Shown: positions 2,524 through 42,228 of the stretch, piece by piece
How the letters are laid out: each line of letters begins with the position of its first letter
How positions within the stretch are numbered: position 1 is the first letter of the stretch
Virus record (IMG/VR): IMGVR_UViG_3300045988_138996
Location: 32,001 to 96,000 of that record
DNA length: 64,000 nt
Source: a virus
Direction: 5' to 3' (one strand)
Made by a program: the position numbers and the translations under genes
Notes under the pieces: generated by a model
What the model was told of the DNA's origin: nothing
The model's input: only the letters and a program-made list of their open reading frames with translations
Database searches by the model: none

Positions 2524-4099
2524 TAATATCTCTGCAGAAGATTACAGTCGATTACTATATGGCTTAACAAAAACTAGTAAGTTTGAAGATGGATTATGGA
2601 AAGTAAATAATTTTCATAAGCTATTATTATATTGTGCCGATTTTAATTTAGAAGGAATCGGCAAATGCAAATACGATCTATATAATTATCAAAAAACTGC
2701 CGTTAAAGAATTACTTGATATTGATAACGGCAGTTTAATTGTAGCTAGTTGTGGCGCTGGTAAAACTTTAATAGCTATCGATTTATACTTAGAGCTATTG
2801 TCTCGTAATAAGATAAAAGGCCCTGGATTAATCGTAGTTAAGAGTAGTTTAAAAGTTCAATGGTTTCATGAAGTTAAAAAGTTTAGCGATCTTGTGCCGA
2901 GTATTCTAGAAACTTCGGCCAAAGCTAAAAAGAAATTCGACGAACAATTTAATGGTGATCTTCTGATCTGCAATTATGAAACGCTTAACGACGAAAAAGT
3001 TCGTGAACGTTTATTAGCAATGAAGATCGAATACATTTTCGCCGACGAAGTACAATACGTTAAAAATTATCAAGCTAAGCGTAGCAAAAGCTTATATAAA
3101 TTTAATAACGTAAAGTATACTTTCGGAGCTACGGCAACACCAATTCAAAAAAATCCTAGAGACATATTCGGAATCTTTCGATTCATTAAGAAGGATTTGT
3201 TCACAAATATTAACAAGTTTGACAAACGATATGTTAAGAAGAATAGTCTTGGATTTATTATTGGTAGCCGTAATGAAAAAGAATTAACCGACCTTATCAG
3301 TCCTAACTTAATTGTTAGAACTAAAGAAGAAGTAAGTAGTCATTTACCTAAGTTAATTGTTAGCCAAAAGTATTGTAACCTTGGACTTAAAACTCAAAAA
3401 GCTAGTGATCAATTACTCGAAGAAATTGCTGATTTAAAAGCACAGCAAGAAGCAATGATGGATCGATTTACTAATATCGACGAAGCTCGTAAGAATGAAG
3501 ATTTTAATAAAATAGATAATCTTATTCTTATGAAGCAAACCTTTGCTCAAGAATTAGCTATTACCGATGAATTATTAAGATTTGGTGATAGTAATGCTGG
3601 CAAGGAATACGTGACGAATGAAAAGAGTCAAAAAATTGAATTATTCTTAGACTTGGTCGAAAGTATTCTTAGCGAAGGCGAAAAAGTCGTCGTATTTAGC
3701 AAATATCGTTCATTACAAAATATATTGGATATGCATTTAGAAAATCGTTTTAAAGGTATTAAAATTTGCCATATTAATGGTATGATGGATTCCGAAAAGC
3801 GATTTGAGCAAGTAAAATTATTCAATGAAACGAATGATTATAACATAATAATCGCATCAAATGCTGGTTCAGAAGGCATAAATATGCATTCAGCTAAATA
3901 TTTAATCGAAATGGATATTGCCGATAGCTATTTAATTCAAACACAACGTCATGGTCGTATTGAACGTGCTAGTAGCAAACATGATAGTGTATTCGTATAT
4001 CAATTAATAGCTATTGGTAGCTATGATGAAATTGCTTTAAAAGTAGTCGACAAAAAAGAAAAATATCATACGAATATTATCAGGAAGGACGTACAATAA
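2486..4099 (+). CDS. SNF2-family (SF2) helicase/ATPase
   Basis: Walker A SCGAGKT, DEXQ box FADEVQ, SNF2 motif III GATATPIQKNPRDIF, motif VI QTQRHGRIER. TTG start with a GAAGAGG RBS. Confidence 0.8.
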   Translation: MEISKNNLVRIPNNISAEDYSRLLYGLTKTSKFEDGLWKVNNFHKLLLYCADFNLEGIGKCKYDLYNYQKTAVKELLDIDNGSLIVASCGAGKTLIAIDLYLELLSRNKIKGPGLIVVKSSLKVQWFHEVKKFSDLVPSILETSAKAKKKFDEQFNGDLLICNYETLNDEKVRERLLAMKIEYIFADEVQYVKNYQAKRSKSLYKFNNVKYTFGATATPIQKNPRDIFGIFRFIKKDLFTNINKFDKRYVKKNSLGFIIGSRNEKELTDLISPNLIVRTKEEVSSHLPKLIVSQKYCNLGLKTQKASDQLLEEIADLKAQQEAMMDRFTNIDEARKNEDFNKIDNLILMKQTFAQELAITDELLRFGDSNAGKEYVTNEKSQKIELFLDLVESILSEGEKVVVFSKYRSLQNILDMHLENRFKGIKICHINGMMDSEKRFEQVKLFNETNDYNIIIASNAGSEGINMHSAKYLIEMDIADSYLIQTQRHGRIERASSKHDSVFVYQLIAIGSYDEIALKVVDKKEKYHTNIIRKDVQ

Positions 4100-6565: not shown

Positions 6566-8026
6566 ATGTACTTGAGCAAAGAAAAATGTGAAAATTTTAT
6601 AAAAGAAAAATGTTGGAATAAATTAAACGAACTACAATTGCCAAGTGCATATGTCGATCGTTTAAATAAAGAATTAAATATATTAGTTAAACAAGATATG
6701 TGCGAATATATCTATATCGTATACGACTATGTTCAATTCTGTCGTAGAGAAAATATCGCTACTGGATATGGTAGAGGAAGCAGCGTCGGCAGCTTAGTGT
6801 TATATCTATTAGATATTAATAAAGTTGATCCTATTAAATTTGAATTAAGTTTCGAACGATTTAGTGCTGGTCATAATGCCGATATCGATTTGGATGTCGA
6901 TACAGTACGACGTGACGAAGTATTTGAATACATATTAAATAAATACAAAAAATATGCTTATCGACTATATACTGTTAATAAGAATGGCAGCAAACAATTG
7001 CATCCGTCTGGTATCGTAATTGATCTACATAATAATTATGATTATATTATGATAGATGGCATTCGTTGCATTAATAAAGATCAATATAATAATTTGCCTA
7101 AGTTCGATATTTTAAGTTTGCGAAATTTAGGCTTATATCAAAATATTGTTCAAAAATATAATATTAATATTAATTTCGACGATCAAAAAGTATGGGAATA
7201 TATGTGGAATAATCCAGATGATTTGTTCTTATTAGGTGGTGAAGTTAAGAAATATATTAAAGACTTTAAACCTAATAATATTAAAGAGCTATGTAATTTA
7301 TTAGCTCTTGTACGATCGCCTGAAGGTGTCGAAACATATACTGAACGAAGAGATGGTAAATGGTTCAGAAAAAGTCCGTACTATAGTTTTGTTAAAGACA
7401 CTTATGGTATTATTACGTATCAAGAACAATTATTAAATATTATCAGTATATTTTTTAAGTTAGAAGATGCTTATGTTTTAATGAAGGATAAAAATAAAAT
7501 TCATAAACAATTAGTCATTGATATGTCTAAAAAGTATAATTGCAAATGGCTATATCAATTATACGATATGAATAAGTATCTATATAATAAATCTCATGGC
7601 ATTGCATATGCTCATGTAAGCTATATCAATGCATATTTAAAATATTATTATCCTGATGAATTTAAAGAAGATACAGTAGTCGAAGTTCAAAATATATTTA
7701 AATATAAAAAGTTAACGTTAGAATCTAAATTTAAAACCGAAATTGAAAATGAAGAAATTATATGTGGTTTTGATAAGATTAAAGGATTTGGTGAAACTAC
7801 GTACAATGAATTAAAAATTGTTGATAAAAAGAAAATATTAAATTTCATATATAATATGAATAAAAATATTGCGCAACAATTAATTCGCTTAGGCGTGTTT
7901 AACGAAGTATTAGAATTATCATCTGTCGATATTTTTAATATGTATTTAGAAAATAAAGGTATTAAAAACCGAGTTAATTATATCGATCAAGATAAGGAGT
8001 ATGAAAAAATATATGGAATTTGGTAA
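6566..8026 (+). CDS. DnaE-like DNA polymerase III alpha catalytic core, lacking the PHP domain and C-terminal domains
   Basis: GYGRGSSVGSLVLYLLDINKVDP...FERF, palm aspartates ADIDLDVD, KFDILSL, YQEQ, NKSHGIAYAHVSYINAYLKYYYPDEF. Only 486 aa. Confidence 0.7.
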   Translation: MYLSKEKCENFIKEKCWNKLNELQLPSAYVDRLNKELNILVKQDMCEYIYIVYDYVQFCRRENIATGYGRGSSVGSLVLYLLDINKVDPIKFELSFERFSAGHNADIDLDVDTVRRDEVFEYILNKYKKYAYRLYTVNKNGSKQLHPSGIVIDLHNNYDYIMIDGIRCINKDQYNNLPKFDILSLRNLGLYQNIVQKYNININFDDQKVWEYMWNNPDDLFLLGGEVKKYIKDFKPNNIKELCNLLALVRSPEGVETYTERRDGKWFRKSPYYSFVKDTYGIITYQEQLLNIISIFFKLEDAYVLMKDKNKIHKQLVIDMSKKYNCKWLYQLYDMNKYLYNKSHGIAYAHVSYINAYLKYYYPDEFKEDTVVEVQNIFKYKKLTLESKFKTEIENEEIICGFDKIKGFGETTYNELKIVDKKKILNFIYNMNKNIAQQLIRLGVFNEVLELSSVDIFNMYLENKGIKNRVNYIDQDKEYEKIYGIW

Positions 8027-9149
8027 TATTATTGAATTCAATACATTCATTAATCATATTATTAGTGAATTCAAAATTAAAATCTATCATACCGAAGAAG
8101 ATTTTAACGAAGAATATTATATTCTTAATGCTTTATTTAAAGCATTAATGTTATTTGAAATACGAGATTATTATGATATTGATTATGATCAAGAAACTAA
8201 ACAAGCTATCATAAAAGAAATAAATAATATCTTAGATCATGGTGTTACAAGAAGTTTTTATAATGACGGGACGTATTGGCTTCTTAGTAAGATATATAGT
8301 TATCGGCGTCAAGATTTTGAAACGCTTATAAAATTACAAAAAAATTCTGAATTTAATAAAATTAAAACTGAAGCACCAGCTACATTTTATATATTAATAT
8401 TTTCATTATTTCTAAAATCATTATATTCTTTAAAAAAAGATCTTGTTAATAATCATCAAGATGTATTTATTAAAATATTAAGTGATTTCGATAGTTTAAT
8501 TCCTAATAAAATATTTATTAAAACAAATTGTGAAATGAAAAATCCAAAAATTATTTATAATTGTTTGTTAAATATATTATTAGGTATTCCATCTTTTGAT
8601 TATTCATCTGTCTGTAATAATAATTTCTATTTAGGAAATAATTTAAATCAAGCAGATTTTTCACCTAGTGTATTGTCAAATGGCGATATTATTAATCCTA
8701 TATTTATTGATGACAATACTAATAAATCTAGAACATTTTGGTTTGTTAGTAATGAAATGGTTATACAAAATGGAGAACTTATCAATAATCGACCTGGATT
8801 ATGCAATATATATGCAGTAAAAGCAGGAGAAGTTCCTAAATTTAGTTATGTATCAGATGTAGAATCTGATAATAAAAGGAAAGAAATTATTCTTAATGTA
8901 CCGACAAATATAAGAGAAAAATCTAATAAGAAATTATTTAAATCTTTGTTGCCTGTACAAAAGAAATTTATTCCTTTATATTTATTGGAAAAACAATTAG
9001 GCGGCAAAATTAAAGATACATATATCTTTGGTGATATCGTTCGTGGTTCTAAAATTAAATTCGATGGCGATAAAAATATTATTATTCGCGATCGCATCGT
9101 TCCAGAAATTCAATATTTTAATAATACAGGAAAGGGCAAGTTGTATTAA
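8001..9149 (+). CDS. Hypothetical protein
   Basis: Long ORF directly after the polymerase core; no motif recognised. The true start may be the ATG at 8013. Confidence 0.5.
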   Translation: MKKYMEFGNIIEFNTFINHIISEFKIKIYHTEEDFNEEYYILNALFKALMLFEIRDYYDIDYDQETKQAIIKEINNILDHGVTRSFYNDGTYWLLSKIYSYRRQDFETLIKLQKNSEFNKIKTEAPATFYILIFSLFLKSLYSLKKDLVNNHQDVFIKILSDFDSLIPNKIFIKTNCEMKNPKIIYNCLLNILLGIPSFDYSSVCNNNFYLGNNLNQADFSPSVLSNGDIINPIFIDDNTNKSRTFWFVSNEMVIQNGELINNRPGLCNIYAVKAGEVPKFSYVSDVESDNKRKEIILNVPTNIREKSNKKLFKSLLPVQKKFIPLYLLEKQLGGKIKDTYIFGDIVRGSKIKFDGDKNIIIRDRIVPEIQYFNNTGKGKLY

Positions 9150-12100
9150 TGGATACTCAATTTAAAATGGAAGATTTACTTGTTGAAAATCCAATGATTG
9201 TAACATTGCTTTTTCAACAGTATCAAGATACGTTTTCAGCATCTTCTAGGATTCATTCTGATTTTAAGACATATGTACTTATCGAAATCAATAACGTAAC
9301 AGTTAAACAAGCTAATGTCGTCGAACATTGTTTTCAATATGCTGGTCAAGATCAATTCCGTAAAGTTTATAACATATTAAATAATAATATGTATAGTGGT
9401 ATTGAGCCATATTTCTTTAACAATAGTCGAGATGCATGGGTCGAATCATTAGAAGAAAGTAATCGTCAATATATTTTTAAAGATCGTTCTTGTTATATGT
9501 TATTTTTAAATCGTTCCGAAATCGGTATGACAATTCCAGAATATAACAACATGGATCAGAAAGATCTATTAAGAAAATATGACGATGAAATTAAGAACTT
9601 TATCTTTGAATACTTAGTCGAATATAAATCTCGACGATATCTCAATACGTTTATTCACAAAGAATTTATCAAAGAATTCTTTAATCATTATTTAAGAACT
9701 TCTGATTCTGAAGTTAGAAAAGTTTTTAATATTAATTCATCTGAAAAATTAGGAATTACTAACATCACTTTACCTAGTGCAGATAAATATGCTCATTTTG
9801 TTAATGATCAGATTAGTAGTATTATTTCGATGTCTAACATTAATTACGAACAACAAGAAACTAAATTATCTGATTATATTTTAGATAATGTTAAAGATCT
9901 TGCTGAATTAATTAATGAAAATTCTGAAATCGTATTTGATCCTAATCATGGCTTAGATCAAGAAGTTAAAGATTTTGGTGACTATTTAAATTACAAACGC
10001 AGTTTTAAATTATTTGACAATCAAAAGAATATTATCAATGCCTTTACTCGCTATTTCAAAAAAGAAAGAGCGGGTTTTTTAATTTCTCAACCAGGTTCTG
10101 GTAAAACTTCGATGGCTATTTCTATTAGTAATCTATGGAAACCTAATAAGAATAAAAACATATTCGTATTATGTCCGCCACATCTTAATAAAAAATGGTC
10201 TATGGACATCAGTGTATTAGCTCAAAATGCTATGGTGTATGAATGCGATAGTGTTCAAGACTATATTAATAAAATTGAACCAGAAATTTCTAAACGTAAC
10301 TGTACTAATTTCATTCTAGTAAATCCTAAGTTATTAAAACACTCATATGGTTATCAATTAGATTGGGATGATACATTCTTATATCATATGTATAATTTAA
10401 GGAAAAAGAATTTATTGTTTGCAGATAAGATATATGCGCCTAATCGTGATCGAGTTACGCGAGATAAACAATATCTTCCATATCATCAATATATTTCGAC
10501 ATATAAAGAAAAGAATGAAGAGCATCCAGATATAAAAACAATATATAGATTTGGTGCAGCTCCTAAAATTATTAAAACTTGTTATGATAGTAATAAAGAA
10601 TTAGATAAACTATTAAGTAAAGCGTTTACAACCTTTAGACATGTTTCATTATATTATAATAATGGTCCAATTCTTGATCGAATAATTAATCAATCTGTTG
10701 GCGAAAAAAAAGTTAATTCTAATTTTGTAAGCCTAGATTGGTATTTACAACGTAAAGGCCGTCATAATGTCGATTTCTTTATTATCGATGAGATGCACTT
10801 ATTCTTAAGTGATTCGATGCAAGGCGAAGGCGCTCAACGTATTGCTAGCTGTGCGAAAAAAGTATTAGGTTTAACCGGTACTGTATTTAATGGTATGGTT
10901 ACAAACCTATTCTTTATGTTAAGAAACTTTTTCCCAGCTAAGCTAAAAGATTTAAAAGGATTTTATTTTAACCGTAATAATCTTGCTGCGTCTAAGACTA
11001 ATTTTAAGAATTATTATGGCAACAAGGAAAAAGTAGCCAGTCCTTATTCTGTCGATGTTAATCGTATGAGACTTGAAGGATCTCGTGTAACCGAAACACT
11101 TAATCAACGTCCAAGTAAAATTAATAGTATTGGATATACATATATAGATCAAGATGGTAATATTCGACAAGACAGTACAGGATTTAATGAATATAAAGTT
11201 AAAGATATTCCTGGTATTAATCCAGAAATCTTTACACAAGTTATGTCATCTTGCTGTATCTTTATGACGATGTCAGATATGTCTAATGAATTACCAGAAA
11301 TTAACGAATCTGTTATTAGCTGTGATTTAGATTCTAATATTAAAGATGCTTATGATAAACTATTGAGCGAGATGAAGGCATCTGATACGCCTAATCTTGT
11401 TAAAGCTCAGAAGATTAATAAAATTGCCGGCTGGTTAGATCACCCTTGTATTATTCCAGACAATCATTTTAATTTTAGAAGTTGTGATGGTAATAATAAT
11501 AAACTAGACGAACTATTAAAAATAGTTAATCATCATGATAATGAATGCATCTTAGTTTATACATATTATGACAAGCATAGTCCAATTAATAATGAAATTC
11601 TTCAAACATTAATTAGTAATGGTATTAAAGCTAATATCTTAACAGATTCTGTAGCACCAGCTAAACGTATCGATTGGTTTAAAAAACAAAAAGATAATGG
11701 CGTTCGCGTAGTTATCGTTAATCCTAAACTAATCGAAACAGGTTTAGATTTGTTAGACTTTACGACTATCGTATTCTATCAGTTGAATTCTAACTTCTTT
11801 ACGATGCGTCAAGCTTCTCGAAGAAGTTATCGATTGAATCAAAAGAATAACGTAAGTTTGTATTATTTATATTATAAAGGTACTGTTCAAGAAAATATTA
11901 TTAGCGTAATGGCTGAACGATTGAAAGCTGTTAAGATATTGGAAGGCGACTTCGAAGACGAAGGTCTCGAAGCTATGACTAATGCTGATAAATCAGATTC
12001 TTCTGATGAGATCTTTAACAAGATGATCACGAATGAAGAATATGTAAACGACGATACTGTACTCGGACTAAATAAGTACGCTCAAAAAATCGAAAAACTT

Positions 12101-12271
12101 GTCGATAATACGACATTTGAAGTTCATAAAGTAAGTTTTGTTAAAAAGCCTATGAACAAAAAGAAGATTGATTTTAAACATGTATATATTAATCTTCAAG
12201 ATAAAGTTACTATGTATAATGTGATGAAAGATCCGAATGAGAAAATTAAATTAGAAATTTCTAACTTTTAA
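9149..12271 (+). CDS. Large SF2 (DEAD/SNF2-like) helicase
   Basis: Walker A SQPGSGKT, DEXH IIDEMH, TGTVFNG, motif VI MRQASRRSYRLNQ. About 300 aa N-terminal extension. Confidence 0.75.
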   Translation: MDTQFKMEDLLVENPMIVTLLFQQYQDTFSASSRIHSDFKTYVLIEINNVTVKQANVVEHCFQYAGQDQFRKVYNILNNNMYSGIEPYFFNNSRDAWVESLEESNRQYIFKDRSCYMLFLNRSEIGMTIPEYNNMDQKDLLRKYDDEIKNFIFEYLVEYKSRRYLNTFIHKEFIKEFFNHYLRTSDSEVRKVFNINSSEKLGITNITLPSADKYAHFVNDQISSIISMSNINYEQQETKLSDYILDNVKDLAELINENSEIVFDPNHGLDQEVKDFGDYLNYKRSFKLFDNQKNIINAFTRYFKKERAGFLISQPGSGKTSMAISISNLWKPNKNKNIFVLCPPHLNKKWSMDISVLAQNAMVYECDSVQDYINKIEPEISKRNCTNFILVNPKLLKHSYGYQLDWDDTFLYHMYNLRKKNLLFADKIYAPNRDRVTRDKQYLPYHQYISTYKEKNEEHPDIKTIYRFGAAPKIIKTCYDSNKELDKLLSKAFTTFRHVSLYYNNGPILDRIINQSVGEKKVNSNFVSLDWYLQRKGRHNVDFFIIDEMHLFLSDSMQGEGAQRIASCAKKVLGLTGTVFNGMVTNLFFMLRNFFPAKLKDLKGFYFNRNNLAASKTNFKNYYGNKEKVASPYSVDVNRMRLEGSRVTETLNQRPSKINSIGYTYIDQDGNIRQDSTGFNEYKVKDIPGINPEIFTQVMSSCCIFMTMSDMSNELPEINESVISCDLDSNIKDAYDKLLSEMKASDTPNLVKAQKINKIAGWLDHPCIIPDNHFNFRSCDGNNNKLDELLKIVNHHDNECILVYTYYDKHSPINNEILQTLISNGIKANILTDSVAPAKRIDWFKKQKDNGVRVVIVNPKLIETGLDLLDFTTIVFYQLNSNFFTMRQASRRSYRLNQKNNVSLYYLYYKGTVQENIISVMAERLKAVKILEGDFEDEGLEAMTNADKSDSSDEIFNKMITNEEYVNDDTVLGLNKYAQKIEKLVDNTTFEVHKVSFVKKPMNKKKIDFKHVYINLQDKVTMYNVMKDPNEKIKLEISNF

Positions 12272-12272
12272 C

Positions 12273-12304
12273 TTGACGGATAAAAAATAATTTAGTACTA
12301 TAAT
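12273..12304 (+). promoter_or_regulatory. Candidate promoter for the downstream non-coding transcript
   Basis: TTGACG (12273-12278), then TACTAT at a 17 nt spacer or TATAAT (12299-12304) at a 20 nt spacer. Confidence 0.45.
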
Positions 12305-12968
12305 AGTAACAGATAGACAACTAAATAGAACCGCACGGATTTGCGGGGTTCGCCTGAACTCAAGGGAAGTCGTTAAGACATATCTTTAGCTTTAGTGAGT
12401 TTGCTAACTATCAACAAGTTGATTACTTGCTTTAGCCGGACCAAGGTGGATTTCTTGTTACTCATGCAATGCATCTGGAGTAGAAAACAAGAAGTTTGGC
12501 CAGCTCATTCAGTAGAATCGGCCCGGTATTACAATTCACGCATTCAAACATCTAGGCTACATTAGAGTAGCTGTATATAGCTAATATAAACGTTCTGTAT
12601 TTAATCGTTTTAGCTTATTACAATAGATGGAGTTGTAATAACGTCAGGGGTTAAGAAGCGTACGAAGACCTCTGCCTAAGGGATAAGTCTGTCCAAAAGA
12701 CAGTATAAGGAACAGGGTATCCTATGGTTAAAAGTACGACGCGGTGGTTTCTAGACTTTAAGTTCATCGAAATCTTAGAGTCAGGTCATTATAAGTTAGC
12801 ATATTTTCCAGGAGAGTACGGTTTAATCCGAAAGGATTGAATGTGAGGGTGATAGATAATCACTAATACCGTATAGAAGACCAAGGTTAGCCGTAAGGTT
12901 AATACAGTCTGAAAGCTTTATTTGAATGTACGAGAAGTTAAGCATACAGAAATGTATGCTATTTTTTA
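12305..12968 (+). ncRNA. Candidate large structured non-coding RNA (~660 nt), class unassigned
   Basis: No ORF of 60 aa or more in any frame. Visibly GC-richer than flanks, with many perfect hairpins, some capped by GNRA loops. Long-range 8 bp complement 12524-12531/12864-12871. Ends in a terminator at 12941-12967. Confidence 0.5.
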
Positions 12969-12980
12969 TTACAAAAAATA

Positions 12981-13046
12981 TACTTACTTCGGGGTAGAAG
13001 ACTCTGCCGTCGTAAACGACGGGAGAAGTCTATCAAGAAGTAAGTA
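12981..13046 (+). other. Long imperfect hairpin (~66 nt)
   Basis: tacttacttc pairs with gaagtaagta, agact with agtct, and ccgtcg-taaa-cgacgg forms the apex. Confidence 0.5.
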
Positions 13047-14257
13047 AAACGTTCTCGTAAAAATTGACAATGTATATATAATTAAAAATTTGATGTTTAT
13101 TCTTTTGCAGCTTTAAACTTAAGCTTGTTGAAAATCACCCTATAAAAGCTAATAAGATGACAACGAATCAAATTTTTAATTCTTTCAAAACTTTGTCTTA
13201 AGTGACGTTGATTCAGAAAGAGTTCTCGCAATGTTTATATAATAAAGCCAACGATGTATAAAACATATGTTCTATGTAGTAGGCCAGGCTGTTAATAATG
13301 ACAATATGCCGGCCGTTACCAATGCTTCATAGTTGATATCTTTTGACTAAGTTGGTTGAAGATCTCTAAGTCATAATATTATTTTTTCAGAAGAAAACGT
13401 ATATAATGGCTTCCCTAGCTCTTTGACAGGTTCAAGTAGCAAGAATCTGGCCACATGGCAAGTAGCTTATTGAGATCGGCTACAGTTGTTACGATTGAGA
13501 ATGTATATATAGTTAATTGCTAAAGTTGGTATAATTATTTAAGATAATTTACATAGTAACGTCATTATACATAAATATTCACACTAAACGATTTTTAACA
13601 CATATTTAGTATAAATATTTTTTTAATGTTCAAAAACCTTTTACGACTCAGATGACGTTACTGATTTACGCACATAATACTAACGATGGCGTTTACGAGA
13701 TATCGTAAAGAGCTTTAATCCTGATAAGATCTATTAAGGAACAATACACTATATCATTATGCGCCCGTTAACAGCATTGATACGGCTTATGGGAATAAAA
13801 TATTTAAATGACATAGTGTAAATATTTCGGTAACGACAGCATTGACAATAGATATATTTTTGTTTTATGTATTTAATTAACACTAACACTAACACTATAA
13901 TACAATTCATCAAAATTAGCTGCTATAACATCTTTTTGTGATTCTTATATTTAACGACATACAATCTATCAACAACTGAAACCGAGTGGCACTCGGGGAT
14001 AGCCTATTGTCAAGAACAAGACGTATTATAAGCTTTTGTTTATGATATGCTTCTAATGAATAGGAACCTCTTAAAGAGGATGCCAGCAACAACTGATCAC
14101 AATACATGTTAGATTAAACTTATTGTTACAGCAGTTAATACATATCTATTGTCGATATGTCGTATGAGTATCTATACCATTAATAGATATTGATCCGACA
14201 TATTGACGTAATATATCTTTACAGTAAATACATATTTAAAGTAAAGGAATATATATC
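13047..14257. other. AT-rich ORF-free region (1.2 kb) with promoter-like boxes, direct repeats and hairpins
   Basis: Only a 63 aa antisense ORF. Repeated acagcattga[t/c]a (13771, 13836) and caacaactga (13970, 14087). Hairpins at 13982-13996 and 14067-14079. Confidence 0.4.
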
Positions 14258-14626
14258 ATGCGTGATGCATATAGAATACGACGAGTCATTTGGCCACAAG
14301 ACTTAGTCGTTAGTTCAATTAGTGGCGATCGAATCCATTATCCAGAATTTTATATCGAACACATTAATACTGGCTGTGTGTTATCGATGAAAGAATATCA
14401 AAAGATTCGCAAAGAACAAGTCGAATCAGAATTTGTCGATCCGTATCCAGATCATGACAATACATATATGAATGAATATTATAAAGATATTCGTGAAGAG
14501 ATTGTCGATAAGTTTAATGATTCTCTTGATTGTATGACACGAGAAGACATCGTCGGCAAAGAAGCTATTCCTGGTAAAAAATGGAAAGTTGTCGACGGTG
14601 AACTCGTAGCAGTTGACAATCGATAA
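14258..14626 (+). CDS. Hypothetical acidic protein
   Basis: AAAGGA RBS upstream of the ATG. Confidence 0.5.
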   Translation: MRDAYRIRRVIWPQDLVVSSISGDRIHYPEFYIEHINTGCVLSMKEYQKIRKEQVESEFVDPYPDHDNTYMNEYYKDIREEIVDKFNDSLDCMTREDIVGKEAIPGKKWKVVDGELVAVDNR

Positions 14627-18956: not shown

Positions 18957-19031
18957 GGCGGGGTAGTCCAAATGGCAGAGACACGAGTCTCATAAGCTCG
19001 TCTAGTGCAAGTTCGACTCTTGCCCCCGCAC
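18957..19031 (+). tRNA. tRNA with CAU anticodon (Met, or Ile2 if lysidine-modified); CCA encoded
   Basis: Cloverleaf found by hand: anticodon stem cgagt/gctcg, loop cuCAUaa, T arm gcaag-ttcgact-cttgc. There is a G1-A72 mismatch. CCA at 19032-19034. Confidence 0.7.
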
Positions 19032-19038
19032 CCAATAT

Positions 19039-19104
19039 TGCAGAGTAAAACAGCATGGAATTGGGTCCATGTCTGAAATGGTTTGACTCCATTCTCTGCG
19101 ACCA
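19039..19104 (+). ncRNA. Aberrant tRNA-like element (62 nt + ACCA) with acceptor and T arms but only one internal hairpin
   Basis: Acceptor tgcagag/ctctgcg, T arm aatgg-tttgact-ccatt stacked directly on the acceptor, and an ACCA tail. The normal D and anticodon arms are replaced by catgga-attggg-tccatg. Confidence 0.4.
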
Positions 19105-19105
19105 T

Positions 19106-19190
19106 GGAGAAGTGGCCGAGTGGATTAAGGCTACAGTCTTGAAAACTGTCGTACGGAAACGTACCGTGAGTTCGAATCTCACCTTCTCCT
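19106..19190 (+). tRNA. tRNA-Ser(UGA), long variable arm; CCA encoded
   Basis: Acceptor ggagaag/cttctcc, anticodon loop cuUGAaa, variable arm cgtacggaaacgtacc, T arm gtgag-ttcgaat-ctcac. Confidence 0.85.
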
Positions 19191-19200
19191 CCATATATAT

Positions 19201-19282
19201 GTACAGGTGGCCGAGTGGTTAAAGGCAGCAGACTGTAAATCTGCCGACATTGTCTATGTTGGTTCAAATCCAACCCTGTGCA
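19201..19282 (+). tRNA. tRNA-Tyr(GUA), long variable arm; CCA encoded
   Basis: Acceptor gtacagg/cctgtgc, anticodon loop cuGUAaa, T arm gttgg-ttcaaat-ccaac. Confidence 0.85.
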
Positions 19283-19289
19283 CCAGTAT

Positions 19290-19363
19290 GGTTCCATGGA
19301 GTAATTGGTCATCTCGTCACCCTGTCAAGGTGAAGATTACGGGTTCAAATCCCGTTGAAACCG
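19290..19363 (+). tRNA. tRNA-Asp(GUC); CCA encoded
   Basis: Anticodon stem tcacc/ggtga, loop cuGUCaa, T arm acggg-ttcaaat-cccgt. One acceptor-stem mismatch. Confidence 0.8.
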
Positions 19364-19368
19364 CCAGT

Positions 19369-19421
19369 ATCCTAACATAGAATTTTTTCTGATTATCTGT
19401 ATTCTGTGTTAGGATTTTTTT
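19369..19421 (+). terminator. Long hairpin terminator inside the tRNA cluster
   Basis: 15 nt arms atcctaacatagaat/attctgtgttaggat followed by a T7 run. Confidence 0.6.
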
Positions 19422-19425
19422 ACTT

Positions 19426-19500
19426 ACTCCTGTAGCTTAGAGGCTAAGCACCCGGCTCATAACCGGGCATTTTACCCTGGTTCGAATCCAGGCGGGAGTA
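19426..19500 (+). tRNA. Second tRNA with CAU anticodon (Met/fMet/Ile2 unresolved); CCA encoded
   Basis: Acceptor actcctg/cgggagt, D arm gctt/aagc, anticodon stem cccgg/ccggg, loop cuCAUaa, T arm cctgg-ttcgaat-ccagg. Unusually long 8 nt variable loop. Confidence 0.7.
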
Positions 19501-19797
19501 CCATAAATAATACTAAGTACAGTATTAGTTCTATTTTTTTTAATATGGAAAGGAAAAACTTGAGTTTAAAATCCGATTCATATATAAGATTCAATCAGAA
19601 CGAGCTTATACATTATACATTATAAAAGTAAAGCTGTAGACTATTTAAGTCTTAGGCCTTAGAAGCCGATTTGGACCGGCTTAAAAGAATAAGGGCTTTT
19701 TTAGCCAAACTTCTTAATAGAGAAAACTTTTAAAAGCTCTCTTAGAATTATATGATTTAATCATATAAAGTTCAATTAAATACTGTGCTTATGTATT

Positions 19798-31913: not shown

Positions 31914-32180
31914 ATGAAAAAATATGTGATTTATCTCCCAAACGAAATTATTAATTTTTGTGAAGACCCTGGCGATAGTATTGTGTATTCAGTACTTGAT
32001 CTTAATAAGTCTGAACAGGAAATTGTCGATCAATTTTGTTCTGACTTAACGTATGATCATTACAAAGCATATGCATTACTAGCTAAACATGGAATTATTT
32101 CTAAAGAATTTGCATGTTTAAAACTAGCAAATGTTGTCGGCGAACTTAATAAAGATTTAAATGAATTGATGGGTGAATAG
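31914..32180 (+). CDS. Hypothetical protein
   Basis: GAGGA RBS. Confidence 0.5.
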   Translation: MKKYVIYLPNEIINFCEDPGDSIVYSVLDLNKSEQEIVDQFCSDLTYDHYKAYALLAKHGIISKEFACLKLANVVGELNKDLNELMGE

Positions 32181-35782: not shown

Positions 35783-36040
35783 ATGAAATTAGAACAAGAT
35801 TATTCTGTAAAAGAACTAATGGAAATGCCGTTAGATGACCTAGTTAAATTAGATTATCCTAAGTTATCTAAAGAAGGCAAGTTAGTCGTTATTAAACGAG
35901 ATCCAGTCATGTGGGCAAAGTCGTTTGTTCAGATTTATAATATCGATTTAGACAAATATGCTCCATGGACACCACGGTGGTATCAAGCCGAGATGCTTCG
36001 TGACAGAAGTCTTCGTAAAGTATTCCGATGTGGTCGTCGT
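35783..36040 (+). CDS. terL: Terminase large subunit, N-extein (up to the first half of Walker A)
   Basis: RWYQAEML...FRCGRR, then the intein Cys. GRR|TGKT rejoins as the Walker A motif. Confidence 0.85.
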
Positions 36041-37033
36041 TGTGTGACTGGTAATCTCGAAATTCAAATGCCATCGACTGGTAAAATTAAAACAGTACAA
36101 GAATTATATAATTCCCAAGAAGAATTTGAAGTTCTTGCACTCGACGATAATTACCAAGTCGAAATAGCACAACATGCTAAAGTCTATGATAATGGTATTA
36201 AACCAGTATATAGGCTTATGACATCGTCTGGTCGAACTATTGACGCCACTGATAATCACCCGTTCTTAACAGAGTTAGGATGGGCAGAACTTTCTAAATT
36301 ATCTGTCGGTGAAAATATAGCTATACCAGTTAAATTAAATTATTTTGGTGATAATAGTATAGAAGAAACTGAATTAAAAATTCTAGCACGTAAACTTAAT
36401 AAAGATAAATCTACTATTAAGGAAATACCAGAAGAAGTATTTACGTTAAATCGTGAAGCCTTATCTGTGTTTGTATCAGAATTAATTCAAGATTCTTTTA
36501 ATGAAAAAGAAAAGCGCCCTGTTAATATGCTTTATATTTCTAAAAGTAAAAAGCTTGTTAAACAGTTAGCACATTTATTGTTAAGATATGGTATCGTAAC
36601 AACATTCCGACAAGAAAACGACAAGTATTCTTTAGGATTCGTTAATAGTAAAACGCATCGACGTCTAAAGAAAAAATCTCATACTTCAATGTTCGCACTA
36701 TATCATTCTTATAAATATCAACCGGTAAATGATAAACTTAATAAAGTTTTCTTATCATATTTACCAGTTAAAGAATTATCGCCATCAGATTTTAAAAAAG
36801 TAAAATTCGATAAATTATCTGTCGAAGAATACTTAAAATCTAAAACTCTAAATAAAAACGAAGCTCGTGAATTTGCCGAGCTTTTAGGATTCGAAACAAT
36901 TTCCGATATATTATATGGTGATATATATTGGGATAAAATCGTATCGATTGAATATTTAGGTGAGCAACAAACATATGATGTTTCGGTACCACACTATCGT
37001 AACTTTATTGCTAACGATATTATTTCACATAAT
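36041..37033 (+). mobile_element. Intein (331 aa) inserted in the terL Walker A motif
   Basis: Starts CVTGN (block A), TDNHPF (block B), ends DIISHN, followed by a +1 Thr (TGKTE). The middle region looks like a degenerate endonuclease domain. Confidence 0.85.
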
Positions 37034-37303
37034 ACTGGCAAAACAGAAACGATGGTGGTCGAAGCACTCTTTAATGTGTTTACACGTAAGAATTTTATTC
37101 ATATGTTCGTAACACCATATCAATCACAAATTCGAATGATATTCGATAATATCCGTCAAAAAATTGATAGCTCTGCACTTATTAAACGAGAAGTAACACG
37201 ATCGACTACTAATCCTCATTTATTAGAATTCTCTAATGGTTCTAAGATCGTTGGATTTACTTCTGGTGCCGGATCTGGTATGAGTGCCGCATCAATTCGG
37301 GGT
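37034..37303 (+). CDS. terL: terL coding segment 2 (Walker A second half to ...SIRG)
   Basis: TGKTETMVVEAL...GSKIVGFTSGAGSGMSAASIRG. The 3' end is set by P1 pairing ggggU with gcccc (37314-37318). Confidence 0.75.
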
Positions 37304-39024
37304 AACATTGCCAGCCCCATATGTTCAGTAATGAGCATATGCTAAACAGGAGTTAAACCGGGGAAGAACTTTAAGAGCTCGTTAAACTACAACGTAATTA
37401 GAAATGATAAGCGTGAATGTTGCGAAAGCTGAAAAAATTAACGAGATGATAATATGGTTAAATCCTAAGTTATCGTAAACAAGAGTTTGTTCCGGTAGGA
37501 ATGTCCGTATAGGACAACCTCTAACGACTATCCGATTGCGTCGGAGTACCTTTTATAATAAAGGGAAAAATACCTGGTCCCACTATGTGGGATTAACATA
37601 TAGTCTGTTCACGTTCTGTAATGGAAGTGCTATGAATTAACATAGGTTATTTAAATGATAAACATTATTAAAAAAATGCTGGCGGGCTGATTCTGGTTGG
37701 AGTGTATATTTGACATTTTAAATGTAATATAGTATTATAATAATATAAATATTTTATAATACGAGGTACTTTAAAATGGAAGAAAAACTTCAACGAATAT
37801 TAAATCTTTTATCTGAAGGAAAAAATTCAGAACAAATTTCATTAATTGTTTTTAAGACAAAAAATTGTGTTCAATTTAATCGATTTTGTTCTGAAAATAA
37901 TATTGATTTAAAACAATATAAAGCATTCAAATATATGGATAAAGAATGGCTTTCAGAACAATTAAAAAAATATAATAACAGTCCTACTATTTTGGCTAGA
38001 GAACTTAACTTATCATTAACTTCTGTAAATCGATATGCAATAGAATTTGGATTAAGAAAACCTAAAAAATCTATTGCATCAGTAAATCCTATAAATGAAA
38101 AATATTTTGATGAAGTGGATAATTTTAAAAAAGCCTATTGGCTTGGTTTTATTATGGCTGATGGTTATACTTATAAAACTCCTAATCGTGAAAAATATGA
38201 ATTAGCGATTAAAATTAAGTCTACAGATATTGATCATTTAAAAGAATTTGCTAAGGATGTTGAATTTCCAGAAGAAAAAATTGCTATAGGCTCTGGCAAA
38301 AGAAATGGCAATATTAATTATTATTGCCAATTAAGAACATATAATACACATTTAGTGACAACTGTTATGCATAAGCATAAAATTGTTCAAAATAAAACTT
38401 ATGTGCAATGTTTACCAGACAGTATTCCAAAAGAATATATCTCTGATTTTATTAGAGGATATTGGGATGGTAATGGCACTCTTAAAAAAGCCGGTTGGTC
38501 TGCATGTACAATGTCTTATCAATTAATAGAATCTTTTGTTAAATATTTTGATGAAAATAATATTGAATATACTTTAAGAAAAGAATTATGTAAAAGTGGG
38601 AACTATTTACATCTAATAAGAATAAGAAGTAAATCACATGATACTTTTGTTAAATTAATTTATCCTCCAGAAAAATATGCTTTAAAAAGAAAATATGATT
38701 TAATATATACGAGTCCACAGAATTAATTTCTGTGAATATAACTTAATTGCTGGGAACCCCTTAGAGCTTTTGATACCGAAGTGTAACAATTCAAAAGATT
38801 GGGCAATCAGCAGCGAAATCTTATTTTTTTAAATAAGATACGTTCAACGACTATCCCTTGGCTACCGCGTTAAAAATTAGCAATAGGAGTACGGCCTAAG
38901 TAGGCGGGTGAAATTCCCTTAATTGGAAATGGTTATCTTTAATTTAATTAAAGAAGATATAGTCTGGCCTAGTATGAAAATACTAGAAGGATTTAACGGT
39001 AACGGTTAAATTCATAACAAAGCG
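37304..39024 (+). mobile_element. terL intervening sequence 1: two complete group I cores flanking a LAGLIDADG gene
   Basis: Core A ~37350-37610 (P accgggg, Q ccggt, R taacgactatcc, S atatagtct). Core B ~38745-39024 (P ttgctggg, Q caatcagcagc, R ttcaacgactatcc, S gatatagtct). IGS cca-gcccc matches the ligated ggggU|tgg. Confidence 0.7.
37776..38726 (+). CDS. LAGLIDADG homing endonuclease with N-terminal HTH repeats
   Basis: YWLGFIMADGY and FIRGYWDGNGT motifs. Own promoter-like TTGACA at 37710. Confidence 0.8.
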   Translation: MEEKLQRILNLLSEGKNSEQISLIVFKTKNCVQFNRFCSENNIDLKQYKAFKYMDKEWLSEQLKKYNNSPTILARELNLSLTSVNRYAIEFGLRKPKKSIASVNPINEKYFDEVDNFKKAYWLGFIMADGYTYKTPNREKYELAIKIKSTDIDHLKEFAKDVEFPEEKIAIGSGKRNGNINYYCQLRTYNTHLVTTVMHKHKIVQNKTYVQCLPDSIPKEYISDFIRGYWDGNGTLKKAGWSACTMSYQLIESFVKYFDENNIEYTLRKELCKSGNYLHLIRIRSKSHDTFVKLIYPPEKYALKRKYDLIYTSPQN

Positions 39025-39184: not shown

Positions 39185-40606
39185 TAAAATAAATAAATTA
39201 GGTTTTTTATAGCAATTCCATCCAATATATGGTAATATATAATTGTAGTTATTTTACATATATTAATAAAAGGAATTGTTACTATGATTAATGAAGATGA
39301 ATTGAGAAGTAAATTAGAAGAAAAATCTGTAGCTCAAATAGCTAAAGATTATAATTGTTCAGAAAATACGATTAGAAGAGCAATGAAGAAGTTTGGATTA
39401 ATAAAAACTTCAAAGAAACCATATCAAAATAAAGAAATATTATTAGATATGTTGCAGACAAAAACAGTTCAAGAAATTGCAGATTATTTTAATGTTGATA
39501 ATCATACTATTTCTAGATGGATCAATAAAAATAATATATCTTTTAATGATAAAAAACTTTATAGAAATAAAGCTTGGCTTGAACAAAAATTAAAAGAATT
39601 TAATGGTTCTTTATCTGCTATATCTAAAGAAACAGGATATAAAAAAGACACAATGCTTGAATGGTGTTATAAGTTTAATTTAAAACACACACCTGATTTT
39701 AATAAAAAATATAATTTAAATATTGATTATTTTAAAAATATTGATTCTGAAATAAAAGCATATTATCTTGGTTTTGGTATGGCTGACTTTGGAATTAGCA
39801 AAGATTGTTATTCTTTTGAATTTAGATTAAAAAAAGATGATAAATATATTATTGAAAAATTAGCAAAAGAATTAAATTATACTGCTGATTTGTATCATTT
39901 TAAAGACAGTATTCGAGAAGGATATTCATTAAGAATTTCTTCAAAAGAAATATGTAAAGATTTAATTTATCATGGAATTGTTCCAAATAAGTCAGGAAAA
40001 GAAGTTTTGCCAAATACTGTTTCAAAAGAATTAATAAAACACTTTATTCGAGGTTTTATTGATGGAGATGGATATATTGGTGGTATAAAAGATAAAACTC
40101 TTGCTATTTGTAGTATGTCTTATAATATATTGTTATCAATTAAATTATTTTTAGAAAAAGAATTAAATATAAAAAAATATAAAATTAAACCAACATTAAA
40201 AGAAAGTGGAAATATTCTATATTATTATAATATATATGGTGATTCTTTTATTAAAGTTCTTGATTATTTATATAAAGATTCAACAATATATTTAATTAGA
40301 AAACATGATAATTATTTAATTCATTTGAATAAAGATATTAATCGTAAAAATAAAAAACTTAACAAGGCTCCATTATTAAGTAATTAATAATTGCAAATCT
40401 TTTGAACTGCTGGAACGTCCGTTAGGAAGATCAGCAGCGAAATCTTTAATTTTTTAAAGAAACGTTCAACGACTATCCTCGTGGTGAGGAGTAGGGTCAA
40501 GCGACTCGAAGCGGAAGATATCCTTTTAATAGGATAAAGATATAGTCTGAGCTATGTAGCAATACATAGAAGGTTGTAAGTAGCGATTACAATCGTAACA
40601 AAACTG
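39185..40606 (+). mobile_element. Group I intron with LAGLIDADG gene (terL intervening sequence 2)
   Basis: Core follows the ORF: P ctgctggaa, Q atcagcagc, R gttcaacgactatcc, S agatatagtct. The junction was chosen to give ELGFQEHY, like T4 gp17 SGFEPY. No P1 pairing found. Confidence 0.7.
39284..40387 (+). CDS. LAGLIDADG homing endonuclease with three HTH repeats
   Basis: YYLGFGMADFG and FIRGFIDGDGY motifs; HTH-like repeats SVAQIAKDYNCSENTIRR and TVQEIADYFNVDNHTISRW. Confidence 0.8.
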   Translation: MINEDELRSKLEEKSVAQIAKDYNCSENTIRRAMKKFGLIKTSKKPYQNKEILLDMLQTKTVQEIADYFNVDNHTISRWINKNNISFNDKKLYRNKAWLEQKLKEFNGSLSAISKETGYKKDTMLEWCYKFNLKHTPDFNKKYNLNIDYFKNIDSEIKAYYLGFGMADFGISKDCYSFEFRLKKDDKYIIEKLAKELNYTADLYHFKDSIREGYSLRISSKEICKDLIYHGIVPNKSGKEVLPNTVSKELIKHFIRGFIDGDGYIGGIKDKTLAICSMSYNILLSIKLFLEKELNIKKYKIKPTLKESGNILYYYNIYGDSFIKVLDYLYKDSTIYLIRKHDNYLIHLNKDINRKNKKLNKAPLLSN

Positions 40607-40928: not shown

Positions 40929-42228
40929 TAGGATCATTGGAGTTGATCGGAAAGTTTTTTGACAGATCTTTATTTTTGTTGTAATATAATAGTATAATAA
41001 ATTAATATTTTATTTTTAAATAATAGGAATTATTATGCTATATAAAAATGAACAATATTTAAAAGAAGCTGTTAAAACAAAAACCAATAGTCAAATTGCA
41101 AAAGAGAATAATATTAGCGCAGATACAGTAACATATTGGCTGAGAAAATATAATATAAAAAAATATGAAGAAAAAGCTCCTTATATGGACAAAGCATATA
41201 TGGCTGAATTATACAATAAGTATAAAAGTGGAAATAAAATTTCTAAATTATTAAATTGCAATGAAAAAACAATATATGCTTGGTTGGAAAAACACGGAAT
41301 AGATACTTCAGAAACTGGTAGCCAAGGAGCTAGAAAACATTTTTATAATGAAAATTATTTTAAAAAAATAGACACTGAAAGAAAAGCTTATTTTTTAGGT
41401 TTTATACTTGCTGATGGATGTGTTTATTTTGGAACAAATAAAAATTCATATAGATTTCAAATGAATTTACAGGCACAAGATAGATATATATTAGAAGAAC
41501 TTCAAAAAGATATTGAATCTGATTATAAAATTCAAGATAAACAATTTGGATATAGTAAAAATGGTGATCCAATTTTAATTTCTTTATTAAAAATTAATTC
41601 ATCTAAATTATGTGAAGATCTAATGAATCTTGGAGTTGTTCCTAGAAAATCTATGAGACAAGAAATGAAAAAAGATTTAATTCCTGATAAGTTGATTAAA
41701 CATTTTATTCGTGGTTACTTTGATGGAAACGGATCTTGTTCTATAAGAAAAAATTCAATCTCTTTAGATTTTTTAGGTAACAAAACAATATGTTTGCAAA
41801 TTGATGAGTATTTAAAATCAAATAAAATAAATAAAAATGTTCTATATGGGAACAAAAAAAATGAATTATATGGTTTAAGAATAAATAATACAGATAATAA
41901 AATTTTATTATATTATTATTTATATAAAGATGCTACTATTTACTTAAAGCGTAAAAAAGAAAAATTTGACAAATTTCTCCAATGTAAAAAAAGTCCTCTT
42001 ATTAAGTAATTAATAAGTAATAAACTGGTTGAATTGCTGGAATATCCTAAATGGACAATCAGCAGCCAAGTCTCTAGTAGAGAAAGGTTCAACGACTATC
42101 CTTGTATAAGGAGTAGGATCAAGCGATCCGAAGTGGCCAGCAACCTAGTAATAGGTCGAAGATATAGTCTAATCTATATAGTAATATATAGCAGCTTAAA
42201 AGCGTATTAAGTTTAGCGAACTTAATAG
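40929..42228 (+). mobile_element. Group I intron with LAGLIDADG gene (terL intervening sequence 3)
   Basis: P ttgctggaa, Q caatcagcagc, R gttcaacgactatcc, S gatatagtct after the ORF. Boundaries are good to a few nt only. Confidence 0.65.
41035..42009 (+). CDS. LAGLIDADG homing endonuclease with HTH repeats
   Basis: YFLGFILADGC and FIRGYFDGNGS motifs; promoter-like TTGACA upstream. Confidence 0.8.
   Translation: MLYKNEQYLKEAVKTKTNSQIAKENNISADTVTYWLRKYNIKKYEEKAPYMDKAYMAELYNKYKSGNKISKLLNCNEKTIYAWLEKHGIDTSETGSQGARKHFYNENYFKKIDTERKAYFLGFILADGCVYFGTNKNSYRFQMNLQAQDRYILEELQKDIESDYKIQDKQFGYSKNGDPILISLLKINSSKLCEDLMNLGVVPRKSMRQEMKKDLIPDKLIKHFIRGYFDGNGSCSIRKNSISLDFLGNKTICLQIDEYLKSNKINKNVLYGNKKNELYGLRINNTDNKILLYYYLYKDATIYLKRKKEKFDKFLQCKKSPLIK

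Follow-up and report, generated by a model that had tools for sequence, protein, structure and literature searches.

The window analysed here is a 64,000-nt stretch of DNA, positions 32,001 to 96,000 of the IMG/VR record IMGVR_UViG_3300045988_138996, and comes from an uncultivated phage whose contigs measure ~230 kb and have 32% G+C. In its left part lies a replication module encoding a helicase, a Mu Gam-like protein, a primase, a DnaE-type polymerase and a 1040-aa SNF2-like helicase of the SNF2/ResIII type. After a long stretch of DNA devoid of open reading frames (ORFs) follow genes for 122-aa and 178-aa proteins without assigned function, for a 1033-aa glucosaminidase/M23 lysin and for five tRNAs. 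The first part of the ORF-free DNA, directly behind the 1040-aa helicase gene, is the subject of this study. A sequence-only reading of the window had taken it for a discrete, non-coding and highly structured large RNA, and this core claim is supported here by synteny, by a nucleotide sequence better conserved than the flanks and by strong covariation; the plus strand of 12308-12967 is almost certainly a genuine structured RNA gene. The predicted transcription unit is delimited by three features:

12273..12304, + strand: sigma-70-type promoter, with the -35 box TTGACG at 12273-12278, a 17-nt spacer and the -10 box TACTAT at 12296-12301
12308..12967, + strand: predicted ~655-nt non-coding RNA, its 5' end placed from the -10 box and its 3' end from the terminator
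12941..12967, + strand: intrinsic terminator, a GC-poor hairpin at 12941-12960 (8-bp stem, GAAA loop) followed by a T-run

The -35 box sits directly 3' of the stop codon of the helicase gene, which ends at 12271, and in the window copy a TATAAT at 12299-12304 overlaps the -10 box. The sequence-only reading had described just such a promoter (TTGACG, then TACTAT or TATAAT) after the helicase stop and a terminator at 12941-12967; the former is present, and the hairpin and T-run of the latter were scored as an intrinsic terminator. Its observation that some 660 nt lack any ORF of at least 60 aa also stands, there being none in 12272-12968, and the ORF-free DNA even reaches 14257, at the start of the 122-aa ORF. 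Reading TGA or TAG as sense codons produces no long ORF in the RNA segment. Nor does the segment have the conserved ORF of a protein-coding gene: between homologues tblastx recovers only fragments of 7-21 residues, in several frames and on both strands, and a conserved frame was what the sequence-only reading had named as evidence against itself. With 38.5% G+C, against 29.0% in the helicase gene and 30.5% downstream, the segment is indeed GC-richer than its surroundings, as had been judged by eye, and belongs to the top ~5% among stretches of 660 nt. Its minimum free energy has a z-score against shuffled controls of -3.95 on the plus strand and -2.48 on the minus strand. G-U pairs occur only on the plus strand, and we assign the RNA to this strand because many of them would become A-C mismatches on the opposite one.

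Homologues were retrieved through protein anchors, which gave about 60 contigs, and a metagenome scan with peptide patterns yielded at least 6 loci. The homologues form three clades, distinguished also by the size of the RNA:

Clade 1: the window, L001-L010 and L134; RNA of ~660-690 nt
Clade 2: L011-L014, L138 and L139; RNA of ~470 nt
Clade 3: L135-L137 and L155-L171; RNA of ~830 nt

All three clades share one layout, namely the helicase stop, a promoter, the non-coding segment, a hairpin with U-run, 0.6-1.3 kb of ORF-free DNA and a conserved 122-aa ORF. At the sequence level the segment is an independent transcription unit whose own promoter and intrinsic terminator are kept in homologues: clades 2 and 3 carry a perfect TTGACA-N17-TATAAT at the same site directly after the helicase stop, and likewise have terminators of the hairpin and U-run type. 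The helicases of different clades are 41-47% identical in amino-acid sequence, and between clades nucleotide similarity persists only in the RNA segment, in blocks that are 71-81% identical. Subclades of clade 1 are 96.7% identical in the RNA, compared with 88.0% in the helicase gene and 85.1% in the spacer. The homologue collection which the sequence-only reading had proposed, made here through protein anchors, returns three syntenic clades with an RNA conserved above its flanks, and the segment is under purifying selection at the nucleotide level.

Beyond these clades an nhmmer profile found no match, and exact motif scans of viral contigs gave mostly chance matches. A triple-motif scan of the GTDB genomes returned nothing, the 122-aa protein was likewise not found there, and in a set of 5.8 billion proteins this protein, used as an anchor, led to the same three clades only. 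In faecal phages with more distant relatives of the helicase (about 25% identity), the helicase gene is followed by no intergenic gap, and the RNA model matches nothing. There is no close cultured phage, and a blastn search against 50,697 phage records gave no match. The RNA family is confined to one lineage of uncultivated ~230-kb phages.

Comparison of the clades gives a predicted architecture that comprises a variable 5' region, a central domain (H2-H5) and a conserved 3' core (H7-H11) tied to the centre by a pseudoknot, with at least 10 helices and one pseudoknot showing compensatory changes. In the window copy the elements are:

12331-12348, + strand: 5' hairpin ccgca/tgcgg, found in clade 1 only and missing from clades 2 and 3
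12438..12449, + strand: conserved motif GGACCAAGGUGG, which is GGACCCCGAUGG in clade 3
12452..12493, + strand: H1, a long hairpin kept in position and variable in sequence, with compensatory changes; its clade-3 equivalent has 5 double-changed pairs
12498..12523, + strand: H2, stem GGCC/GGCC closing the conserved 18-nt loop AGCUCAUUCAGUAGAAUC (15-18 nt across the family)
12527..12640, + strand: H3, an inverted repeat in which UAUUACAA (12527-12534) pairs with UUGUAAUA (12633-12640)
12641..12674, + strand: invariant junction ACGUCAG overlapping H4, CAGGGGU/ACCUCUG (12645-12651/12668-12674)
12675..12727, + strand: canonical 11-nt GAAA-tetraloop receptor, CCUAAG (12675-12680) and UAUGG (12723-12727) flanking H5, GGAUA/UAUCC
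12726..12747, + strand: conserved single-stranded block GGUUAAAAGUA...CGGUGG
12750-12753 with 12853-12856, + strand: putative clade-1 pseudoknot, UCUA with UAGA, tentative
12754..12782, + strand: H6, 9-bp hairpin GACUUUAAG/CUUAGAGUC, with compensatory changes and a positional equivalent in clades 2 and 3
12816..12874, + strand: H7, GUACGGU/ACCGUAU (strands 12816-12822/12868-12874), closing the 3' core; 3/7 pairs double-changed
12825..12838, + strand: H8, hairpin AAUCC-GAAA-GGAUU; 3/3 aligned stem pairs double-changed
12839..12868, + strand: conserved GAAUGU, H9 GUGA/UCAC (12843-12846/12860-12863), 3' strand of the pseudoknot and ACUAAUA (12862-12868)
12878..12910, + strand: H10, AGAC/GUCU, enclosing H11, GUUAGCC-GUAA-GGUUAAU; 4/8 and 5/5 pairs double-changed

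For the 3' core, a covariance model (124 nt, 33 pairs), built from the 3' domain of clade 3 alone, matches clade 2 (E 9e-7) and the window copy at 12811-12912 (E 7e-5), in each case at the syntenic position (300 kb searched). In the resulting alignment 99.8% of the cells are standard pairs and 17/33 pairs are changed on both sides; when the partners are slid by 1-3 columns, 0-4 double-changed pairs are left, and the covariation score of 0.461, against 0.178 in shuffles, is attained by 0 of 500 shuffles. Plain MAFFT had misplaced the GAAA hairpin across clades, and the alignment fitted to the covariance model was used instead. RNAalifold finds 118 pairs, 21 with double changes, in the comparison of clades 1 and 2, and 252 pairs, 30 with double changes, in clade 3 alone. 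Covariation, which the sequence-only reading had proposed as a check, supports it, with 17/33 pairs double-changed in the 3' domain and 30 pairs within clade 3.

Among the individual helices of the core, H7 covaries in all three clades (CAUGGU/ACCAUG in clade 2, CUACGAU/AUCGUAG in clade 3), a pair in the H9 region switches from C-G to G-C, and the GAAA loop of H8 (12830-12833) is invariant in 33/33 distinct sequences. The H11 loop (12893-12896) is GUAA in nearly all copies, L009 and L171 having GCAA instead; conservation extends to the CAAG/ACA internal loop. Compensations that arose independently within clades are seen in H10/H11 of L009, L155 and L161: AGAC/GUCU has become AGAU/AUCU in L009, GAAAUGAU/AUCAUUUC has become GAAAUAAU/AUUAUUUC in L155, and the helix changed in L155 reads GAAGUAGU/AUUACUUC in L161. 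A further within-clade case is the replacement of GGUAUAC by GGAAUAC or GGCAUAC, with the partner strands changed to match.

The pseudoknot is best documented in clade 3, where its helix crosses H7 and takes the forms CUCAU/AUGAG, CUCG/CGAG, CUAGUC/GACUAG, CUCAC/GUGAG and CUUCC/GGAAG; aligned by plain MAFFT, it is double-changed in 4/6 pairs. The nine-helix structure of this clade is 98.8% paired, and slid controls have 0-1 double changes. The equivalent in clade 2 would be AGUA/UACU, the pairings of clades 1 and 2 (4-5 bp) being drawn from the sequence only.

In the central domain, the stem of H2 changes to GAUCC/GGAUC in clade 2 and to GGUAGA/UCUACC, GGUCGA/UCGACC, UGUCGA/UCGACA or AGUCGA/UCGACU in clade 3. 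The strands of H3 read AGUAC/GUACU (clade 2) or GAUC-GCUA/UAGC-GAUC (clade 3), and the insert that H3 closes is shortest in clade 2 (19 nt), longer in clade 1 (98 nt) and longest in clade 3 (about 170 nt). H4 varies from CAGCGGU/ACCGUUG in clade 2 (G-U to C-G) to CGGGC/GUCCG or CGGAU/AUCCG in clade 3. When the central domain of clade 2 is made into a model, it matches clade 1 at E 1e-10 to 1e-15, and in L007 and L004 the match takes H3 as a long-range pairing that encloses 92 nt of insert; the model was unable to span the clade-3 inserts, and matched the clade-3 H2 hairpin weakly. We also observed that UAUUACAA occurs twice (12527-12534 and 12616-12623), and that either copy can pair with UUGUAAUA at 12633-12640, forming the long-range H3 or a local 9-bp hairpin; the dual pairing could mean that clade 1 alone has a second conformer. 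Two further candidates were set aside: a hairpin CAAGG/CCUUG within the GGACCAAGGUGG motif competes with the positionally conserved H1, and a palindromic 4-mer in the H2 loop (AGCU; GCGC in clade 3), considered as a kissing site, is within chance.

The local helices that had been picked out by eye in the window copy are all present. Four of them (12452-12493, 12754-12782, 12825-12838 and 12887-12902, the last with the GUAA loop) are kept in position with compensatory changes, whereas those at 12331-12348, 12556-12571 and 12689-12703 are specific to clade 1, and the 9-bp stem at 12615-12641 exists and competes with the homologous long-range H3, since UAUUACAA is duplicated. Two long-range features fared less well. 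An 8-bp closure of 12524-12531 with 12864-12871 is not conserved, pairing at 5/8 positions in clade 2, and competes with the covarying H7, to which its 3' half belongs; its 5' half consists of a conserved CCGG and of the upstream strand of H3; and the repeated octamer gaccaagg turns out to be specific to clade 1, its second copy not being conserved.

The 11-nt receptor is written CCUAAG_UAUGG in the literature (10.1101/2024.03.11.584472), and here CCUAAG and UAUGG lie on opposite strands of a helix while a GAAA hairpin is present in the same RNA. The receptor pattern has its sole match in the 64-kb window at this site, the chance expectation being 0.6 for the whole window, which corresponds to about 0.003 for one strand of a 660-nt segment. 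The receptor is CCUACG/UAUGG in clade 2 and CCUAAA/CAUGG in clade 3, where the closing G-U has become A-C; covariation is seen in the helix between its two halves. The GAAA loop and the canonical receptor together appear to mark a self-folding RNA, in which, by analogy with known receptors, we infer that the loop docks into the receptor.

The search with Rfam models that the sequence-only reading had recommended was carried out, and GOLLD (RF01998), ROOL (RF03087), OLE, HEARO, raiA, RNase P, tmRNA (examined also with ARAGORN), 6S and the group I and II introns are all without a match. With Rfam 15 at gathering thresholds nothing was found in 12272-14257; at E<=10 with relaxed filters, 12000-14300 of the window and 8940-10600 of L135, which holds an 830-nt copy, gave only chance-level matches to snoRNAs, miRNAs and CRISPR repeats. 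The scan works on this DNA, because it picks up three group I introns and five tRNAs in other parts of the window. In the portion of the published ROOL and GOLLD alignments that was compared, the invariant motifs are nearly absent, a single ACUAAUA occurring in one ROOL sequence. Hence, of the two possibilities raised by the sequence-only reading, GOLLD/ROOL or an undescribed class, the former finds no model match at E<=10 in two clades and the latter remains. No description of such an RNA was found in the literature; a structured-RNA screen of IMG/VR reports 8,495 motifs of 29-151 nt and describes no large RNA (PMC10690425), and fragments of this RNA could be among these motifs, which come from the same viral contig collection. 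We consider it very probable that the RNA represents a new, previously uncatalogued family. Some segments resemble 16S rRNA (CUAAUACCG), a Shine-Dalgarno sequence, the anticodon loop of tRNA-Met or the GGA repeats of CsrA targets, but these likenesses lack either conservation or enrichment and were dismissed.

The surroundings of the RNA gene have several features of their own. A further 1.3 kb of ORF-free DNA (12968-14257) follows the terminator, its length ranging from 0.6 to 1.3 kb by clade; this spacer is less conserved than the flanking genes (within clade 1, 85.1% vs 88.0%), and the spacers of different clades do not align. In the window copy, AATGTWTATATAR occurs three times without a change (13069, 13230, 13500) and nowhere else in the window, in two cases preceded by GTTCTCG; these copies could be phage-specific promoters or small transcription units. 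Some 15-25 nt past the RNA terminator all three clades have a long imperfect hairpin of unrelated sequence (window 12981-13046, L014 ~13183-13222, L135 ~9821-9853), in the window ACUUACUUC...GAAGUAAGU with GCCGUCG-UAAA-CGACGG inside it; this hairpin may serve for termination in both directions or for processing. The DNA shortly before the 122-aa ORF has a perfect tandem repeat, TAACAC x3.3, and an inverted repeat of 34 nt (76% complementary), at 13878-13897 and 14142-14216. The clade-3 spacers contain a module of ~100 nt forming a long hairpin (GATTCGACTGGC ... GCCAGTCGC), with one copy in L135 (~9930-10030) and two each in L136 (~3600-3700, ~3780-3880) and L137 (~9510-9600, ~9690-9790). The 122-aa protein itself (14258-14626) is 64-70% identical across clades, against 41-47% for the helicase, and is among the best conserved of the region; it has no Pfam or PHROG match, and its predicted structure (pLDDT 69) no fold match (best E about 1).

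Farther away, the five tRNA genes lie at 18957-19503 (Met, Ser-TGA, Tyr, Asp, Met; two with a CAT anticodon; G+C up to 50%). The sequence-only reading had placed a tRNA cluster about 6 kb downstream of the RNA, which is correct, and had seen in it a hint of the RNA class, for which it is weak evidence, three protein genes lying between. The three group I introns (38692-38986, 40350-40569 and 41976-42191) match at Rfam gathering scores, with 76-113 bits, and the ORFs adjoining them (37776-38726, 39284-40387 and 41035-42009) each have LAGLIDADG and helix-turn-helix (HTH) domains. A 520-aa ORF (35783-37345) combines an intein splicing domain with a LAGLIDADG domain, and therefore the window holds an intein besides the introns. 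In the replication module, a 486-aa ORF (6566-8026) ends the DnaE-type polymerase domains (NTPase, finger) and overlaps by 26 nt a 382-aa ORF (8001-9149) without family match; the pair could be a split or frameshifted polymerase.

The mechanism that we propose starts from the transcription unit. Host RNA polymerase would initiate at the near-consensus sigma-70 promoter behind the helicase gene and stop at the intrinsic terminator, giving a discrete, probably abundant, early transcript. Within one molecule or between molecules, the GAAA loop would dock in the CCUAAG/UAUGG receptor, and docking would yield a rigid compact particle, the RNA providing architecture in trans and not acting by antisense pairing or cis regulation. 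A self-folding, possibly self-assembling particle of this ROOL/GOLLD-like kind might, as a guess, engage components of translation or RNA metabolism during infection. An architectural, possibly self-assembling RNA particle acting in trans is the mode that we favour among those considered, but it is offered tentatively and is itself somewhat doubtful. To the full explanation, identity and mechanism taken jointly, we assign a probability of about 0.5, a compromise between a well-supported identity and a weakly supported mechanism.

Several considerations weigh against this explanation. The promoter, the terminator and the ends of the transcript are predictions, and the central and 5' pairings are only partly resolved, including the alternative pairing for 12633-12640. 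The alignment of the 3' domain (A7) was fitted to the model and leans to its own structure, and the many compensatory cells represent few events, because there are only three clades. Binding of GAAA is putative for the receptors of clades 2 and 3, which have C for A in the platform and A-C for G-U, respectively. The ROOL/GOLLD-type context is weak because the tRNA genes are 6 kb off, and any oligomerisation or partner is conjectural.

Among the alternatives, a protein-binding RNA, that is, a ribonucleoprotein scaffold, decoy or guide which sequesters a host or defence factor or works with the SNF2/ResIII helicase or the 122-aa protein, is conceivable though unlikely. HEARO, like OLE, works as a ribonucleoprotein, and this counts in its favour. 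OLE is documented as a large ornate RNA of ribonucleoprotein type (PMC12286853); moreover, the conserved single-stranded blocks and the 15-18-nt loop could be protein sites. The fixed synteny with the 1040-aa helicase upstream and the highly conserved 122-aa protein downstream would fit as well, but adjacency is little informative because the whole genome region is syntenic, and it is countered by the 0.6-1.3 kb of non-conserved DNA between the RNA and the 122-aa gene, by the lack of a family or fold match for the 122-aa protein, and by the RNA's own promoter and terminator. A new large ribozyme, in which the junctions ACGUCAG, AUGGUUAAA, AAUGU and ACUAAUA, held by the pseudoknot and the tetraloop-receptor clamp, would form an active site, seems distinctly improbable. 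Its attraction is that invariant unpaired nucleotides are concentrated at multi-helix junctions and accompanied by a pseudoknot, and that, as Costa and Michel reportedly found in 1995, pairs of GAAA and 11-nt receptor are typical of group I/II introns and RNase P. It has no evident substrate, splice-site-like boundary or processing site to set beside these features, the models of known ribozymes give no match, and ROOL, GOLLD and OLE show similar features without known catalysis (PMC12286853).

A very divergent ROOL or GOLLD that the Rfam models miss would explain the size of 470-830 nt (659 nt in ROOL env-120), the phage location, the size-variable insert resembling the ROOL/GOLLD linker, and a 3' part conserved above the 5' part as in GOLLD. 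We regard this as very unlikely, since RF03087 and RF01998 have no match at E<=10 with relaxed filters over 1.7-2.3 kb in two clades, the invariant motifs are nearly absent from the compared portion of the alignments, and the nearest tRNAs lie 6 kb away. Just as slim is the chance that the segment is a replication-origin transcript, a primer RNA or a cis-acting DNA element of the replication module. The RNA does stand at the end of the helicase/Gam/primase/DnaE module and is followed by AT-rich, repeat-bearing non-coding DNA; yet the intrinsic terminator ends the transcript ahead of the repeat region, the downstream spacer is not conserved, covariation preserves RNA pairs including G-U on one strand only, and tetraloop, receptor and pseudoknot point to a folded RNA and not to a DNA site. 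A cis-regulatory leader or attenuator of read-through into the downstream genes, in favour of which the terminator hairpin could in principle be conditional, is hardly credible when the next ORF lies 0.6-1.3 kb away across non-conserved sequence, when size and complexity are far above those of known leaders, and when no Rfam riboswitch or leader exceeds its gathering score, the sole such match being an S4 leader (E 8.4) outside the RNA.

Bacterial and phage RNAs of more than ~450 nt with elaborate conserved folds are very rare, rRNAs, GOLLD and group II introns being the only RNAs that Weinberg et al. list as longer and structurally more complicated than ROOL (PMC5737381), and each such RNA has proved biochemically remarkable, as a ribozyme, a ribonucleoprotein machine or an RNA-only nanocage. 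The present family enlarges this group by one class, whose shared core occurs naturally in RNAs of 470, 660 and 830 nt, and offers a textbook tetraloop-receptor pair together with a strongly covarying pseudoknot. Its minimal 470-nt form is an attractive target for cryo-electron microscopy (cryo-EM), and the family could be used to ask whether self-assembly is general among large phage RNAs and what role such RNAs have in infection. That it is a third independent class of phage RNA building a defined higher-order particle, or a new large ribozyme, with an intermolecular or domain-clamping GAAA/11-nt-receptor contact and a pseudoknotted core put to use by jumbo phages early in infection, is a reading that we think unlikely.

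Among known systems, the pRNA of phi29 is a phage-encoded, independently transcribed structural RNA acting as an oligomer via RNA-RNA contacts. It has a size 4-7 times below that of the present RNA, shares neither sequence nor structure with it and occurs in phi29-like phages only; nothing here points to a packaging role. Group I/II introns and RNase P RNA likewise have the canonical CCUAAG...UAUGG flanking a helix and a GAAA hairpin elsewhere in the molecule; this RNA differs in matching none of their Rfam models, in having no exon context and in lacking the core sequences of those ribozymes. GOLLD is phage-borne, reaches 800 nt or more, is more conserved in its 3' than in its 5' region and has a variable linker and a conserved GAAA loop, all of which recall the present family, whereas this RNA has no match to the GOLLD model, no embedded or adjacent tRNA and other motifs. 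ROOL and GOLLD are located in phages or prophages, often by tRNA islands; the RNA described here shares the phage location, and its nearest tRNAs are 6 kb downstream. Both form RNA-only nanocages, as homo-oligomers (8-mer or 14-mer) (PMC12286853). ROOL, with a mean of 581 nt (659 nt in env-120), is an ornate, pseudoknotted, stand-alone RNA of phages and prophages, with a linker variable in size and sequence and a function that is not known (PMC5737381, PMC12286853). This RNA, with several junctions and at least one pseudoknot, is similar in being large, pseudoknotted, stand-alone, phage-borne and furnished with a size-variable insert; it differs in its conserved motifs and in having no tRNA island adjacent to it, and, whereas ROOL is spread over several bacterial phyla, it belongs to a single lineage of virulent jumbo phages.

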